The notes beneath the pieces were generated by a model, which worked only from the letters and a program-made list of their open reading frames with translations, was not told where the DNA came from and searched no databases. Positions 11,250 to 27,561 of a stretch of DNA of 38,575 nucleotides are shown one piece after another. The position numbers and the translations under genes are program-made. The DNA comes from a virus (lineage: Duplodnaviria; Caudoviricetes). Numbering within the stretch: the stretch's first letter is position 1; the number at the start of each line of letters is the position of its first letter. Where the stretch lies: positions 1 through 38,575 of the IMG/VR virus record IMGVR_UViG_3300024309_000089, one strand, 5' to 3'.

Positions 11250-11689
11250 TGAGCGCGCCTATCGCATTCCAAGGTGAAGTCATGCTGGCCGGTTGGTCGG
11301 AGACCCACAACGGCGGCGCCAAGGTCACGTTCTGGCTTGCTGACGAAGGTGATCTAGCTGCATTCAAGTCTATGACGGTGGCTAAGGGCAAGACCGCTGG
11401 CCAGCGTCTGGCAATCGTAGCTGTCGAGATTGGCGACGATGAACAGCCTGTATCCCCCCAAGCTGACCAGGCGAAGGGCGGAGAACTGGCAAAGCTGGCC
11501 GGAATTTTCTGCTGCCAATCGGAATTCTATGACTTCGCCGGCCTCACGGATCGAACCATGGAAGGTGCGCGCGACTGGATCTTGCGTGTTTGTGGAATCC
11601 AAAGCCGGCGCGATTTGGATCACAACCCAACCGCCGCGAAGATCTTTCATGACCGCGTGCGCAAGCCCTACTTGGAGTCGCGGAAATGA
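11249..11689 (+). CDS. Conserved phage hypothetical protein
   Basis: CGIQSRRDLDHN..AAKIF motif; coupled ORFs. Confidence 0.7.
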   Translation: MSAPIAFQGEVMLAGWSETHNGGAKVTFWLADEGDLAAFKSMTVAKGKTAGQRLAIVAVEIGDDEQPVSPQADQAKGGELAKLAGIFCCQSEFYDFAGLTDRTMEGARDWILRVCGIQSRRDLDHNPTAAKIFHDRVRKPYLESRK

Positions 11690-12222
11690 CTCAGGAAACC
11701 TGGCGCGACGTTCCCGGATACGGCGGGCTGTACGAGGCTTCCTCGTTGGGAAGAGTTGCGACGAAATCGCGAGTGGTTAGCAAACGTACTAGGCACGGCG
11801 GGATGATGACCCAAAGATATGGCCGGAGAATTCTGTCGGCCACCACCATCAAGGGATACAAGATTGCTCATATTGGTATCAACGGCCAGAAGCTGCGGGT
11901 TGGTATTCATCGCCTGGTGTTGATGGCTTTCTGCGGTGAGGCTGGGCCTGGTCAGATTACGCGCCATCTGAACGGCGATCCTGCTGACAACCGACCCGAG
12001 AATTTAGCTTGGGGCGATCACCAGGAGAACATGCTTGATCGAAAGCGGCATGGTCGGTATGCAGTGGGCGAGCACCATTGCATGGCCAAGATCACCAAAG
12101 AGCAAGCGCTTCATATTAAGTCGTCGACAGCTTCCGGCGCCGACCTAGCACGGGCGCACGGCATAGGCCAATCGCAAGTGTCGAGGATCCGACGCGGCAC
12201 GTCCTGGCAGGAGGCGCTATGA
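11686..12222 (+). CDS. NUMOD4-HNH homing endonuclease
   Basis: ETWRDVPGYGGLYEASSLGRV; HRLVLMAF...RHLNGDPADNRPENLAW. Confidence 0.9.
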   Translation: MTQETWRDVPGYGGLYEASSLGRVATKSRVVSKRTRHGGMMTQRYGRRILSATTIKGYKIAHIGINGQKLRVGIHRLVLMAFCGEAGPGQITRHLNGDPADNRPENLAWGDHQENMLDRKRHGRYAVGEHHCMAKITKEQALHIKSSTASGADLARAHGIGQSQVSRIRRGTSWQEAL

Positions 12223-16737: not shown

Positions 16738-16928
16738 CTTGGCCATTCCGGAAGCAGCCGGTAGTAGCTGGCTCCTTGTGGGTTAGCAAGATGACCGGGT
16801 CCCAGAAGGAAGTGGTAGAGGTGAAGGACGGACAGGTGCGGTACCGCTTGGTCTCCAAGTCGGCAATCCCTCAGCCGTCCGAGGTTGCATCAGTGGGCCA
16901 GTTTCGTAGTTGGCATAAGCCGCTATGA
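16734..16928 (+). CDS. Hypothetical protein
   Basis: ATGA overlaps on both sides. Confidence 0.5.
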   Translation: MTWPFRKQPVVAGSLWVSKMTGSQKEVVEVKDGQVRYRLVSKSAIPQPSEVASVGQFRSWHKPL

Positions 16929-17215
16929 GATACGGGCAGGGAAGAGGCGGTAGACCTTGGCGCCGTCTGCGAGATCAGATCATGGCCCGCGATGGGTACA
17001 TGTGTCAGTGCGAGAACTGCAAGGGCGTGAAGCTCATCGCACACGAGGTCGATCACATCAGCAACAAGAGGGATGCAGCGGGCAATCTGAACGATGATCC
17101 ATCCAACCTCCGGGCGATGAACCGTGATTGTCATGCGGAAAAGACCAAGCGTGAGGCGAACGGTGGTTACAAGCCGCGTGTCGCGGTAGGGATAGACGGT
17201 TGGCCAGTCCGGTGA
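16925..17215 (+). CDS. Terminase-associated HNH endonuclease (HK97 gp74-like)
   Basis: WRRLR...RDGYMCQC, EVDHI, NL...CH..KT, DGWP motifs. Confidence 0.9.
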   Translation: MRYGQGRGGRPWRRLRDQIMARDGYMCQCENCKGVKLIAHEVDHISNKRDAAGNLNDDPSNLRAMNRDCHAEKTKREANGGYKPRVAVGIDGWPVR

Positions 17216-21462: not shown

Positions 21463-22668
21463 ATGAGCGCAATTGAGCAGGAATACAAACAGGTCCAAGC
21501 CGACCTGAAGCAAGTCGGTGATGATCTCAAGGCTTACGCCGAGCAATCCCAGAAGGAAATCAAGGCACACGCCAAGCTTTCCGAGGACACCAAGGCGTCG
21601 GTGGACAAGCTGCTGGTCCAGCAGGGCGAACTTCAGGCCCGCCTGCAAGCCGCGGAACAGCTCATCGTCAAGATGGAAAACGGCGGCGGCGACATGCGTC
21701 CGGTATCGATGGGCGAAGAGTTCATCAAGGCAGAAGGCTTCGAGTCGTTCGCGGCGAAAGCGTCTGGCGGCATGAAGGGCAGCTTCTCGGTGCCGGTTAA
21801 AGCGGCGATCACCAGCCTGGGCACGTCCGCGGGCGAGTTGATCCAGCCGACCCGGGTTGGCATGGTCATGCCGGTGCAGCAACGCCTGTTCATCCGTGAC
21901 CTGCTGTCCTGGGGTCGGACTGGCTCGAACAGCATCGAGTACGTGCGCGAAACCGGCTTCACCAACAACGCGGACGTTGTGTCGGAAAACCCGACCAACC
22001 CCAAGCCGGAATCGAACATCACGTTCGAGCTGGACACCGATCCGGTGGCGACCATCGCCCACTGGGTGCGCGCCTCGCGTCAGGTTCTGTCGGATGCTGC
22101 CATGCTCGCCAGCTACATCGACGGGCGCCTGCGCTACGGCCTGAAGCTGAAGGAGGAAGCGCAGTTGCTGAAGGGTTCCGGCGTCGGCCTGAACCTGAAC
22201 GGCATCTACACCCAGGCATCGGCCTACGCCAACCCCGGCGTAGCGGTCCAAGCGGAAACCGCGATCGACCGTCTGCGCCTGGCTCTGCTGCAAGTCACCC
22301 TGGCCGAGTTCGACGCTGACGGCATCGTTCTCAGTCCCATCGACTGGGCGGCTATCGAACTGACCAAGACCACGGACAACGCGTATCTGTTCGCCACGCC
22401 CAGCGGCTTGGCCACTCCGGGCCTGTGGGGTCGTCCTGTCGTTCCGACCAAGGCCATGACCGCGAGCGAGTTCCTGGTGGGTGCGTTCCAGCAAGGCGCC
22501 CAGGGCTGGGATCGCGAAGATGTGTCGGTGACGGTTTCGACCGAAGACCGGGACAACTTCGTGAAGAACATGGTCACGATCCTGTGCGAAGAGCGCGTTG
22601 GTCTGTCGGTCTACCGCCCCGAGTCGTTCGTCAAGGGCGATTTCGACGGTCTGCCGGCTTCGGCGTAA
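21463..22668 (+). CDS. HK97-fold major capsid protein
   Basis: Coiled-coil delta domain; KPES, IAHW, LWGRPVV, EERVGL motifs. Confidence 0.95.
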   Translation: MSAIEQEYKQVQADLKQVGDDLKAYAEQSQKEIKAHAKLSEDTKASVDKLLVQQGELQARLQAAEQLIVKMENGGGDMRPVSMGEEFIKAEGFESFAAKASGGMKGSFSVPVKAAITSLGTSAGELIQPTRVGMVMPVQQRLFIRDLLSWGRTGSNSIEYVRETGFTNNADVVSENPTNPKPESNITFELDTDPVATIAHWVRASRQVLSDAAMLASYIDGRLRYGLKLKEEAQLLKGSGVGLNLNGIYTQASAYANPGVAVQAETAIDRLRLALLQVTLAEFDADGIVLSPIDWAAIELTKTTDNAYLFATPSGLATPGLWGRPVVPTKAMTASEFLVGAFQQGAQGWDREDVSVTVSTEDRDNFVKNMVTILCEERVGLSVYRPESFVKGDFDGLPASA

Positions 22669-22671
22669 GGC

Positions 22672-22695
22672 GGCGGGGGCTTCGGCCCCTGCTTC
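22672..22695 (+). terminator. UUCG hairpin after the capsid gene (partial terminator or RNA stabiliser)
   Basis: GCGGGGGC-TTCG-GCCCCTGC with a weak U tract. Confidence 0.5.
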
Positions 22696-22711
22696 TCCAG
22701 GAGAAGGGAAA

Positions 22712-22966
22712 ATGGTAACGGTAACTGCTAAGCAGTCCTTCGACCACGGCGGCAAGCGCATGCCTGGTGAGCAGTTCGAAGTCAGTGATCAGCACGCCAA
22801 GCAATTGGCAGATAAAGGTCTGATCCATTCCACTGACGGTGACACCACTGACCCTCTAAAGGCCGCTGGCGAATCGTCGTCTGCATCGCAAGCGGCCCAA
22901 GCCTCACGGCAGACGACTGCGAAGCGGTCCGGGCGTGGCGGGCGGGGGCGAAAGACCGCGGAGTAA
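22712..22966 (+). CDS. Small capsid-adjacent protein (84 aa); 0-frame product of a probable frameshift gene
   Basis: Purine-rich SD; PGEQFEVS...AKQL..KGLI small head-accessory-like motif; Ser/Thr/Arg-rich tail. Confidence 0.75.
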   Translation: MVTVTAKQSFDHGGKRMPGEQFEVSDQHAKQLADKGLIHSTDGDTTDPLKAAGESSSASQAAQASRQTTAKRSGRGGRGRKTAE

Positions 22967-24342
22967 TCGTTACCAACACCACATTCCGACTCGCTCCATG
23001 GGCTGATGTGCTGTACGCCATGGATCGCGTCTGGTGGAAAGAGTACGGGGAAGAGGCATTGAGCAGCTTTTCCGGTGAGCTTTGGGCGCCGTTGACCGGA
23101 ATCCGGGGCGTTCGGAAAGCCTCTTTTGATTACGGTAAGAATTCCGGCTTGGGCGCCATTTCGTTGGCGGTGCACTGGGGCGCGCAGCGGATCATCTTGA
23201 TCGGCTACGACTGCCAGAAGACGGACGGGAAAGCCCATTGGCATGCCGACCATCCCAATGGGCTTGGCAACGCCGGCGCGGTAGCCAAGTGGCCGCAGCA
23301 GTTCTCGGACCTGGCCAAACGTCTCAGCGCTAAGGTTGTGAATGCCTCCAGGGTGACGGCGTTGGAATGCTTCCCCCGGGTCACCTTGTCTGAGGCCTTA
23401 GAGCAGCAGACGAAACCTCCGCTCTTCATTCAGGGTATGCACGGCCTGGGCGACAACTTGCACCAGAGATCTGTAGTCCGGCAGTTGAGCCGCGATCACG
23501 AAATCTGGCTGGAGACGCCCTGGCCCTGTCTATACCACGACATGCCAGGCGTAAATCTGGTCGGGAAGGGCTCGAAGCTGCGGACCCAGGCCAAGAATGC
23601 GGCGCGCGAGCGCGATCGGTTTACCGAAAGGCCGGTGCCGCGAAACGCAAAGCGGTTGGAAGTGAAGTATCCGCCGGAGGCTGTGCGTCGGCATGGATCG
23701 GTGTTAGCCGCCATGTCAAACCAGTGTGGTGTGGAGCCGGGAGAGTTCCGGTTACCAATTCTCGAAGCTTGGCGGGTCAGGGCGGATGATCTGGTTCGCC
23801 AATGGAGTCCCGATCGGCCGCTGATGATCTACCGCCCGCTGGTCGAGCGGACCGAGTGGGGCGGATGCCGGAATCGCAACCCGGCTCATGAAGCGTATGC
23901 CGACCTTTATAGGAGTGTCCGCGAGTCCTTCTTCGTCGTGAGCGTAGCGGACGTATCGCCCGGCAAGGAGTGGATCGTGGGCGAAAAGATAGATGCCGAC
24001 GTCGAGCTGCACGCCGGGGAGTTGGACATTGAGGTGCTTGCCGCGTTGGTTGCGCAGTCCGCCCTGGTATACACCGCGCCAGGGTTTGCAGTCATCCTGG
24101 CACAAGCGGTAGGGACGCCTTCGGTGGCAGTGTTCGGAGGATATGAGAACTCGCAGTCGTTCTCAGCCGGGGCATCGCAGGCGCCATACCTTGGGATTGA
24201 TCCCATAAAGCCGTGCAACTGTTTCAGCCATAGCCACAGGTGCGAAAAGCGCATCGACGTGGTGGGTGCCAAGCGCCGCCTTTTGGAGTTTGTGAATGCG
24301 CATTGTCCGCAACAGGGAATCAGTCCGGCTCTCGCCGCGTAG
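22852..24342 (+). CDS. Two-domain glycosyltransferase (DUF115/MptE/Maf-like plus GT9-like GT-B), probably reached by -1 frameshift from 22712
   Basis: Frame open from 22852: IASGPSL, NSG..AI.LA..GA..I.LIGYD, then HGLGD and AQAVGTPSVAVFGG; no start codon until 23008. Confidence 0.7.
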   Translation, partial: PSKGRWRIVVCIASGPSLTADDCEAVRAWRAGAKDRGVIVTNTTFRLAPWADVLYAMDRVWWKEYGEEALSSFSGELWAPLTGIRGVRKASFDYGKNSGLGAISLAVHWGAQRIILIGYDCQKTDGKAHWHADHPNGLGNAGAVAKWPQQFSDLAKRLSAKVVNASRVTALECFPRVTLSEALEQQTKPPLFIQGMHGLGDNLHQRSVVRQLSRDHEIWLETPWPCLYHDMPGVNLVGKGSKLRTQAKNAARERDRFTERPVPRNAKRLEVKYPPEAVRRHGSVLAAMSNQCGVEPGEFRLPILEAWRVRADDLVRQWSPDRPLMIYRPLVERTEWGGCRNRNPAHEAYADLYRSVRESFFVVSVADVSPGKEWIVGEKIDADVELHAGELDIEVLAALVAQSALVYTAPGFAVILAQAVGTPSVAVFGGYENSQSFSAGASQAPYLGIDPIKPCNCFSHSHRCEKRIDVVGAKRRLLEFVNAHCPQQGISPALAA

Positions 24343-24886
24343 TTACGAGGCCAAGGGTCTGCCTACGGAGTATTTCAACCCGGGAGAGCTGGATGTTTTG
24401 CTGAGCCTGATGGAATCCGTAAATGCCGAGGTCGTCATCGAGTTCGGCGTGAACAGCGGGCGCAACCCTGCGGCGGTATTCCGTAACCTGCCATCTGTGC
24501 GCCGCTATGTCGGCGTCGATGTGGCTCCGGGCTACCAAACACTCATGCCGGTCCAACGCCGGGAAGTGCTGCGCAACCCGGGGCACTTGGTCAAGGACGA
24601 TGCCCGGTTTGAGTTGCTTGTCCGGCCGAATGGCAGTTTCGATCTGGAGCCGAGCGACCTGCCACAGGCGGATGCAATCTTTATCGACGCGGACCACTCT
24701 CGCGCCGGCGTGCTGAATGACTACGCCCTGGCGCTGAAAGTGATTCGCCCTGGTGGAATCATCATTTTCCACGATGACAACTGTAGGCCGGTGGTGGAAG
24801 TGACGCAAACGCTCAACGAGCTTTGCGACAACGGCGCCGCTATCAAGCACGTGGAAGGAACCTGGATTTCCTATGAGCGTCATTGA
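24296..24886 (+). CDS. Class I SAM-dependent methyltransferase (Methyltransf_24-like)
   Basis: VIEFGVNSG, YVGVD, IFIDADHS, RPGGIIIFHD motifs. Confidence 0.88.
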   Translation: MRIVRNRESVRLSPRSYEAKGLPTEYFNPGELDVLLSLMESVNAEVVIEFGVNSGRNPAAVFRNLPSVRRYVGVDVAPGYQTLMPVQRREVLRNPGHLVKDDARFELLVRPNGSFDLEPSDLPQADAIFIDADHSRAGVLNDYALALKVIRPGGIIIFHDDNCRPVVEVTQTLNELCDNGAAIKHVEGTWISYERH

Positions 24887-25184
24887 CCTTGAGACCGCGA
24901 AGCAGTTTCTGGACGTCATCCATAGCGCGGATGACACCAAGCTACAGATGTTGCTGGATGGCGCTGAAAGAGAGGCGCTGGACTTCATGAACCGAGACGA
25001 GTTCGGCATGGAGGACTGCAGCAGCGAGTCGTCGAGTGAACCCGAGATGATGCCTGACAGTGTTCGCCTCGGCGTTCTGCTCCTGCTGCAGGCTGCCTAC
25101 CAGGCTACGCCCGACGATGCGGCGAAGCTGCGTGCCGCGGCTGAGGTCAAACTGATGCCGTACCGCTGTTACATGGGGGTGTGA
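24873..25184 (+). CDS. Head-tail connector (HK97 gp6-like)
   Basis: IDLETAKQFL...DD..L, VRLGVLLL, LMPYR motifs. Confidence 0.85.
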   Translation: MSVIDLETAKQFLDVIHSADDTKLQMLLDGAEREALDFMNRDEFGMEDCSSESSSEPEMMPDSVRLGVLLLLQAAYQATPDDAAKLRAAAEVKLMPYRCYMGV

Positions 25185-26917: not shown

Positions 26918-27268
26918 ATGCTCAACAAGTCGTACTTCACTCCGGAGACTGTGTTCGAAAAGGACGTTGATCTCGGTGACGGCAAACTTCAAAAGCTGCA
27001 CTTTCGCAAGTACAGCGGGGCTGGCTTCGCGGCGTACGGTTACGCCGTTCGATCTCAGGATTCCGTGGAACAAGGCAGGGCAAAGGCCATCTTGATTGCA
27101 GACTGTTATTGCAATGAAGAAGGTCAACGCCAATTGACTCTTTCCCAAGCGTGCGGGTTGAGACCCGAAGCGATGAATGCCATGTTCGTCGCGTTGCTCG
27201 AGGTTAACGGCTTCGTCGTTGACAAGACGCCAGACGAAGAAGATCAGGACGATCCGGGAAACACGTAG
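26918..27268 (+). CDS. Tail assembly chaperone (G)
   Basis: Between tube and tape measure genes; ends in slippery GGGAAAC. Confidence 0.8.
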   Translation: MLNKSYFTPETVFEKDVDLGDGKLQKLHFRKYSGAGFAAYGYAVRSQDSVEQGRAKAILIADCYCNEEGQRQLTLSQACGLRPEAMNAMFVALLEVNGFVVDKTPDEEDQDDPGNT

Positions 27269-27561
27269 AGGCCGGCTCCGACGATTGGTTATGGGCTGTC
27301 CTCGCCATGAGGCTCGGGGGCAGAACCATCCAGGAGTTGATGTCGGCCATGACACAGCATGAGTTTCGTTATTGGAAGGCGTTCTATGAACGGCATCCTT
27401 TCGATGATCTGCACGTGTTCCACCGGCCTGCGGCGTTGATTGCGCAGAGCATGGGTGGAGGTGATTTCGGCCAGAAGGTCGACTTGCTATCGAACCCGTT
27501 CGTCAAAGACTACTCCGACGCAGATTTGCGCACTCTCAAGGCGTTCGGCCTGAAACCTTAA
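27256..27561 (+). CDS. -1 frameshift extension of the tail chaperone (GT)
   Basis: G GGA AAC at 27256-27262; -1 frame open to 27561 (LGGRTIQEL...EFRYW..FY). Confidence 0.85.
   Translation, partial: GKHVEAGSDDWLWAVLAMRLGGRTIQELMSAMTQHEFRYWKAFYERHPFDDLHVFHRPAALIAQSMGGGDFGQKVDLLSNPFVKDYSDADLRTLKAFGLKP

Follow-up and report, generated by a model that had tools for sequence, protein, structure and literature searches.

The start-less frame behind the capsid gene

How does a phage translate an enzyme whose reading frame has no start codon where its conserved sequence begins? This question is raised by the frame ending at 24342 in the window, by which we mean the whole stretch of DNA analysed, a 38.6-kb lambdoid, HK97-type temperate phage genome with integrase, repressor, replication, terminase, portal, ClpP protease, capsid, tail and lysis modules, whose closest relatives occur in Achromobacter genomes (92% in the enzyme domain). 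The features given below from the capsid gene to the head-tail connector gene lie on the + strand. The HK97-type major capsid gene (21463..22668; Pfam PF05065), whose product ends in ...LPASA, and the head-tail connector gene (24873..25184; PF05135) enclose an 84-aa gene (22712..22966), the long frame whose end is at 24342, and a gene for a SAM-dependent methyltransferase (24296..24886; PF13578). The 84-aa gene follows the capsid gene after a 43-nt gap, has an SD-like AGGAG at 22699-703, and encodes a DUF7210/gpFI-like domain (residues 1 to about 44) and then a Lys/Arg-rich tail. The long frame is the -1 frame of this gene. It is open from 22852, reads PSKGRWRIVVCIASGPSL..., and is bounded by a TGA at 22849..22851 which, on reading of the sequence, sets the 5' limit of a shift. 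The original prediction had stated that this frame holds no ATG, GTG or TTG until GTG 23008, and re-reading gave the same result; importantly, a match to PHROG 4603 begins at residue 12 of the open -1 frame, 40 codons ahead of that first start.

Conservation of the overlap across related loci

We gathered 168 loci in addition to the window and anchored 167 sequences on the SGPS motif of the enzyme (L039 and L134 were not anchored), after which two truncated loci (L072, L136) and a mis-anchored one (L092) were dropped. The remainder comprised 134 start-less overlaps and 30 sequences without this arrangement, which at <85% identity gave 95 and 26 distinct loci. Own-start controls number 25, with L121 left out as ambiguous, and counts over 92 rows leave out three loci in which no ATG was found. 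Our first class rule needed an open frame at the Leu codon of SGPSL, a codon that is CTG in 0/95 overlap loci vs 13/25 own-start loci; loci were reclassed by the small-domain profile alone, and under this profile-only classing an early stop occurred in 0/133 loci. A stop-independent profile rule gives the same split (94/95 overlap vs 0/26 own-start loci), and the small-domain profile lies in the same relative frame in 134 of the 167 anchored sequences, far beyond chance.

A missing start taken by itself would also fit a sequencing error or a decayed pseudogene, and it is the one point in favour of that reading. Yet the contigs of four public runs have no gap at the site, a check that covers contigs and not raw reads, with three of them (X3, X5, X6) spanning the site in one piece, X3 being near-identical to the window and X4 possibly its source. 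With the same arrangement found in 134 sequences, including phage D3, an error or pseudogene is refuted by conservation and its probability is practically negligible.

Alternatively, ribosomes could initiate internally on the enzyme frame, using a non-canonical codon, or the enzyme could be the annotated 444-aa protein from GTG 23008. Consistent with this, an Ile codon (ATC or ATT) stands two codons ahead of SGPS in 86/95 loci, and gene callers do annotate truncated forms, for example D3 orf7. However, the ATC at 22873, raised in the original prediction as a possible start, is present at that position in 2/95 loci, is not conserved and was ruled out as a start codon; a near-cognate codon accompanied by an SD-like word at or ahead of this position is found in only 2/95; and among the 133 loci with the best match in the -1 frame an independent upstream start is confined to a GTG within 30 codons in only two, with ATG in none. 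Later starts cost the modelled core its strand 1 or even its entire SGPS loop. Furthermore, internal initiation leaves the slip motif, its replacements, the stem and the in-frame fusions described below unexplained, and we regard it as very improbable.

A conserved shift-prone tetramer

The overlap loci carry a shift-prone tetramer in the frame of the small gene, 12-17 codons ahead of SGPS, in 94 of 95 cases vs 2 of 25 own-start loci. The conserved overlap, missing start and slip site sought by aligning homologous loci are thus present together. In the window this tetramer is C_CCT at 22852..22855, where, judging from conservation and from published work (PMC4066793), tRNA-Pro would re-pair from CCU to CCC. 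The 95 distinct overlap loci comprise 85 with C_CCY, nine with another shift-prone motif and one with only C_CCG, the nine replacements being G_GGA_AAA (four loci), A_AAG (two), T_TTT, T_TTC and, in phage D3, C_CCA_AAG; a tetramer allowing cognate re-pairing therefore lies inside the six-codon window in 94/95. By comparison, seven control windows of the same loci each contain C_CCY in 0-6 of 94-95 cases, and of the 37 small genes of enzyme-less loci 4 contain it anywhere in codons 38-75. The codon ahead of the site is of 13 kinds, all ending in C because the slip motif requires C. CCT makes up 56 of the 85 Pro codons at the site vs 53 of 421 in the enzyme body, where it is the rarest, and this preference agrees with the ranking reported for E. 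coli by Sharma et al. (2014), C_CCU = C_CCC > C_CCA, C_CCG (marginal) (PMC4066793). In the same report C_CCU and C_CCC are among six active tetramers, shifting at 0.26-5.6% with an IS3 pseudoknot and a 5-nt spacer, and C_CCA_AAG is the best heptamer (PMC4066793).

The reading frames bracket the same position. Ahead of the site the -1-frame residues are variable and include stops, one of them directly ahead of the slip codon in 8/95 loci, and past the site they are conserved, with no stop past the slip codon. Two slip sites had been proposed, C_CCT and the A_AAG at 22858-61. The first held up (85/95 C_CCY), and the second appears incidental, being present at that position in 1/95 loci (the window only), overlapping the first base of the stem and leaving no spacer. 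A slip at C_CCT implies that the junction would be the first of those put forward (...DTTDP/SKGRWR).

An upstream SD stimulator was also considered and rejected, an SD-like word 5-20 nt ahead of the site being found in only 26/92 loci and not conserved. Four exceptions have no good motif at the usual place: L137, which has C_CCG, L263, L304 and phage Psp6. In Psp6 (L169:1211-2067), L263, L304 and L121 the enzyme overlaps the small gene or is start-less, with no good motif at the usual distance, and the shift may lie further upstream.

A candidate RNA stimulator downstream of the site

Downstream of the slip site the window can form two stems. Stem 1 pairs 22861-22872 with 22886-22897 (22861..22897) and begins 5 nt past the slip site; stem 2 pairs 22876-22884 with 22909-22917 (22876..22917), with 9/9 Watson-Crick pairs in the window. 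The spacer between slip site and stem measures 5 nt in 55 of 92 loci, and 68 of the 92 fall in the range of 4-6 nt. Across 74 gap-free loci 87% of stem 1 cells are paired, with 19 two-sided changes vs 5.2 +/- 2.0 in shuffled data, while the number of stem 1 pairs showing a two-sided change (4) is not above shuffles (110/500). The pair 22862/22896 (GC 51, CG 6, AU 5, GU 4, other 8; n=74) takes in the free third base of an invariant Gly, which follows its partner, and its CG and AU cases are scattered over a quick tree. Against synonymous randomisation stem 1 gives z -1.37 in overlap loci vs -0.17 in controls, and stem 2 a mean z of +1.85 vs -0.02, in a region that codes in two frames, which constrains its bases independently of RNA structure. 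Stem 2 is paired in 76% of cells across the family, with few two-sided changes, and a GC[AG]GA[CT] arm is retained, in either of two registers, by 64/95 overlap vs 4/25 own-start loci. The RNAalifold consensus did not contain stem 1 and had a weak 4-bp alternative instead; the window stem stands out in the tightest fragment alone (z -2.63), longer fragments being no more stable than shuffles (z -0.77, 0.02 and -0.92), and Rfam gave no match at E up to 1. Taken together, stem 1 is well supported as the predicted 3' stimulator, and stems 1 and 2 are likely to form an H-type pseudoknot.

The position of this structure also bears on whether the slip would occur on the ribosome or during transcription. 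A small 5' hairpin predicted just ahead of the site in the window is compatible with transcriptional slippage, but the run consists of three C only, the motif preferences obey tRNA re-pairing rules and the conserved structure is found 3' of the site, at the distance expected for a ribosomal slip, which makes slippage of the polymerase extremely improbable.

Natural fusions and phage D3

The search for in-frame fused versions of small domain and enzyme was successful: such fusions account for 8 of 120, 2 of 150 and 9 of 120 of the matches listed (at least 19 database proteins). Six of the nine in the last of these sets resemble the predicted 543-aa product (48 + 495 aa) in having both transferase domains and a length of 522-554 aa. 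The eight of the first set occupy three positions on a quick tree, at least two of which are forced by strong branches. These natural fusions show that the fusion is a working architecture. Pseudomonas aeruginosa phage D3 has the same overlap in orf6.5/orf7 (L061:2355-3073), with C_CCA_AAG and the same stem. Its enzyme is single-domain, the predicted fusion being 239 aa, and the annotated orf7, which begins at an ATG further downstream, lacks the first 38 codons and the SGPS motif.

The original prediction of two products sharing an N-terminal domain (84 and 543 aa, with 48 aa in common) is thus supported by the motif, the stem, the stops and the fusions. Conservation and replacement of the motif, the covarying 3' stem, the bracketing stops and the in-frame fusions all argue for the -1 frameshift that had been proposed, and from this comparative evidence we are highly confident that a -1 ribosomal frameshift joins the small gene to the enzyme frame. 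Our literature search, which covered mostly open-access texts, returned no report of this frameshift.

The small domain resembles lambda gpFI

Residues 2-38 of the small gene product match Pfam PF23843 (DUF7210) with 31 bits vs a cut-off of 27. The model of the domain (pLDDT 84) has as its first-ranked Foldseek match the C-terminal domain of lambda gpFI (2LSM; TM 0.72, E 0.089), and a VIA comparison with 2LSM gave Z 5.7, rmsd 0.9, 41 aligned residues and 29% identity. The GINS B-domain and L9-N tie with gpFI within 1 Z, gpFI having the lowest rmsd and the highest identity of the tied VIA matches. In a PDB sequence search with the domain 2LSM came up at no better than E 1.1, and tblastn of the domain in annotated phages gave no match. 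The zero-frame tail that follows is basic and of low complexity, with a median net charge of +5 in 92 loci, and many of these tails finish with a run of Ser. The small gene of L098 is interrupted by an additional frame break, and the small-gene tail of L022 is cut by an early stop, through error or decay.

Of 74 capsid-anchored loci, 50 have the small gene directly behind the capsid gene, and 37 of these 50 lack the enzyme, from which we infer that the small gene is the ancestral resident and that the enzyme was grafted onto it. L032, L148, L144, L014 and L165 have 0.3-0.9 kb of extra DNA between the capsid and small genes, probably an inserted gene.

In lambda the gpFI gene likewise lies directly after the major capsid gene, and gpFI has a separate N-terminal helical domain ahead of its head-binding domain; no frameshift extension of gpFI is known. 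GpFI is bound to the prohead lattice and works by binding DNA non-specifically (PMC4856287). The protein studied here would share with gpFI its post-capsid position, its small fold and a basic segment putatively able to bind DNA non-specifically. Unlike gpFI, in which the domain is C-terminal, the small domain is N-terminal, starting at residue 1, with the basic unstructured tail after it. Since it has no N-terminal helical domain and the domain order is reversed, it may be said to work like gpFI and not to be a strict member of that family. The fold model and the position suggest that the short product is a gpFI-like packaging helper, with a capsid-binding domain and a basic tail that probably binds DNA.

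Prediction of a complex between capsid protein and small domain gave a weak signal (0.50 vs 0.00 for the best control; contacts agreeing at >=97%, partner pLDDT >=74), on a mark reached by 116/157 solved and 2/215 mismatched pairs, of which only 18/157 solved pairs and both mismatches reach it at <=0.60. The gpFI-like fold, the FI-like position, this prediction and the correlation with a capsid serine described below make it likely that the fusion docks the enzyme on the procapsid. Docking is not needed in every case, since about a fifth of the distinct relatives (26/121) lack the small domain and make an enzyme that has a start of its own. For example, P1 pmgO, P7 hdmB and PAJU2 ORF10, which belong to the same enzyme family, each carry a start codon in frame and lack the small domain. 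Knockdown showed P1 pmgO to be non-essential (PMC10695390), and the main text of the P1 virion paper makes no mention of it; neither point has a bearing on the frameshift. PAJU2 ORF10 (L064:2471-3040) is annotated as 'structural protein' in its record.

Enzyme domains and a candidate capsid acceptor

The first -1-frame domain (22852..23409; phrog_4603 at residues 12-186) contains the SGPS motif and has a Maf/CstII-like glycosyltransferase fold (model pLDDT 95; Foldseek E 5e-5 for this type of fold). Its best fold match is Maf 5mu5 (Z 15.5, rmsd 3.3, 169 aligned residues, 18% identity), followed by the MptE diphosphokinase (Z 11.5) and CstI 2p56 (Z 10.2); Pfam PF01973 scored 16.9 bits on it, below the gathering score of 34.6. 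The reaction that marks enzymes of the Maf/CstII type is transfer of a CMP-activated nonulosonate or Kdo to protein Ser/Thr, and the observation that bears on it here is the capsid-serine correlation given below. The second domain (23422..24342; phrog_6804 at residues 191-469) is a putative glycosyltransferase of GT9-like (GT-B) type, falling in an Atlas cluster (score 0.97) in which 45% of the proteins carry PF01075, and its close matches are named 'glycosyltransferase family 9' in their source records. It had no Pfam match and no PDB sequence match, and PDB sequence searches gave nothing significant for either enzyme domain. Maf enzymes O-glycosylate Ser/Thr of flagellin (PMC7591256). The first domain would share with the Maf flagellin O-glycosyltransferases (5MU5) its closest catalytic fold, and with FlmG the modular design of a substrate-binding and a catalytic domain, but unlike Maf it consists of the catalytic core only, with the targeting domain supplied by the predicted frameshift.

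What would such an enzyme modify? A serine occurs in the last five capsid residues in 67/82 enzyme-bearing vs 8/58 enzyme-lacking loci, 'enzyme-lacking' meaning no match within a 3.5-kb flank; of the 15 enzyme-bearing capsids without this serine, 14 have Thr. A capsid tree from which the last 12 residues had been left out (136 of 140 rows) gave 12 independent pairs, 8.6 changing the same way and 1.1 the other way (median p 0.02, range 0.012-0.18 over pairings). The capsid-end serine thus tracks the enzyme, which points to it as the acceptor, and we propose Ser400 of the capsid protein (codon 22660-22662) as the candidate glycosyl acceptor. The C-termini of HK97-fold proteins are expected to face outward. 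That the predicted glycosyltransferase acts on the capsid C-terminus is, in our judgement, reasonably probable.

At the C-terminus of the L046, L047 and L187 capsids Ser/Thr/Pro units recur (STPAS repeats), which looks like a glycosylation tag copied several times.

The frameshift could also be real and the enzyme aimed elsewhere, at the connector loop, the Ser-rich tail of the short protein, the packaged DNA or a polymer on the surface of the host; it could also be a diphosphokinase. The connector of the window has a Ser-rich loop, CSSESSSEP, which is a possible second acceptor, and connector loops with three or more Ser in six residues also track the enzyme (28/68 vs 6/56), a weaker correlation without phylogenetic control. 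Ser runs end many short-protein tails, as noted above, the second domain resembles LPS heptosyltransferases, and MptE and thiamine pyrophosphokinase have the same fold as the first enzyme domain. On the other hand, the capsid-end serine is the strongest correlation and survives phylogenetic control, the structure closest in fold is that of a protein O-glycosyltransferase, and the neighbours in the head operon across loci are GT2, GT29-like, further glycosyltransferase and methyltransferase genes. Tail-tube C-termini showed no serine tag (12 vs 26 sequences). We therefore consider another target or a diphosphokinase unlikely, though clearly the most serious competitor of glycosylation at the capsid C-terminus. 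The methyltransferase (24296..24886), fused to both transferase domains in several relatives, probably modifies the glycan.

Proposed mechanism and relation to known systems

We propose that a small share of ribosomes slips back one base at C_CCT (22852-55), tRNA-Pro moving from CCU to CCC, with the help of the stem, or probable pseudoknot, 5 nt downstream. The products would be the 84-aa short protein and a rare predicted 543-aa fusion; by analogy with the measurements in E. coli, the slip may occur in about 1% of passages and set a high ratio of helper to enzyme. The short product would help packaging, and the fusion would sit on procapsids through the shared domain, where its Maf-like domain would O-glycosylate the serine at the capsid C-terminus; extending or capping the glycan would fall to the GT9-like domain and the methyltransferase. 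Taken as a whole, this account of frameshift, gpFI-like helper, docking and capsid-serine glycosylation seems to us fairly probable. We hold it slightly likelier true than false that in widespread HK97-type phages of proteobacteria, D3 included, a C_CCY/pseudoknot shift makes the gpFI-like packaging chaperone serve as targeting module for a Maf-like enzyme that glycosylates the capsid at a co-evolving C-terminal serine, amounting to self-glycosylation of the virion in Gram-negative hosts, with its dose set by recoding and hidden from annotation.

A GC-rich, terminator-like hairpin with a weak T tail lies between the capsid stop and the small gene (22672..22693; -19.9 kcal/mol for 22669-22711). 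A terminator scan made no call at this hairpin, and similar ones are visible in most of the related loci listed. It may reduce transcription of the genes that follow or shield the capsid mRNA, and possibly forms a second tier of dose control.

The tail assembly chaperone G/GT frameshift is known in phages. In the window, the tail assembly chaperone gene (26918-27268) has G_GGA_AAC (27256-27262) at its end, with the -1 frame open into 27307-27561, and this is a predicted ordinary G/GT frameshift; together with the post-capsid site it means that the late operon likely has two -1 shifts. Other late-gene frameshifts give capsid and tail extensions in T3, T7, A2, A118 and PSA (PMC5009743, PMC3711429). 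The shift proposed here would share with these a place in a late structural operon and the fixing of a protein ratio; unlike them, it is not in a capsid or tail gene, and the extension would be catalytic, not Ig-like or a chaperone. With the IS3-family shift (PMC4066793) it would have in common a Z_ZZN tetramer, a 5-nt spacer, a 3' stem or pseudoknot and a short product alongside a longer fusion. It differs in relying on C_CCY, which is not among the tetramers given there as common in IS1 and IS3 (A_AAG, U_UUY, A_AAA; PMC4066793), and, unlike IS3, it lies in a phage head operon and would join an assembly helper to an enzyme.

Virion glycosylation, with the capsid as an acceptor, is reported for the mycobacteriophages Che8, Corndog and Myrna (PMC12363180, PMC11256854, PMC4351075). 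Phage-encoded glycosyltransferases and an O-methyltransferase, in Corndog inside the head operon, are shared with them, in contrast to the proteobacterial hosts, Maf-like enzyme, frameshift-controlled expression and capsid-binding tag predicted here. Late-gene frameshifts in phages and mycobacteriophage virion glycosylation are already known, and the correlation between capsid C-terminal serine and enzyme is newly seen. The analysis exposes a recoded gene whose enzyme is truncated by annotation in many phages, including the classical P. aeruginosa phage D3, and suggests a likely role for DUF7210 and a natural family that relies on a C_CCY tetramer. If the proposal is true, Gram-negative phages glycosylate their own heads, with enzyme, targeting domain and acceptor residue named; in mycobacteriophages head glycosylation has been linked to antibody recognition (PMC12363180, PMC11256854, PMC4351075).

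Two further observations concern the wider setting of the locus. The 38-kb genome carries three HNH endonuclease genes (2084-2596, 11686-12222 and 16925-17215), and distant relatives of the enzyme domain occur in 13 Caulobacter and 5 Brevundimonas phage records and in 3 Tetraselmis virus records.
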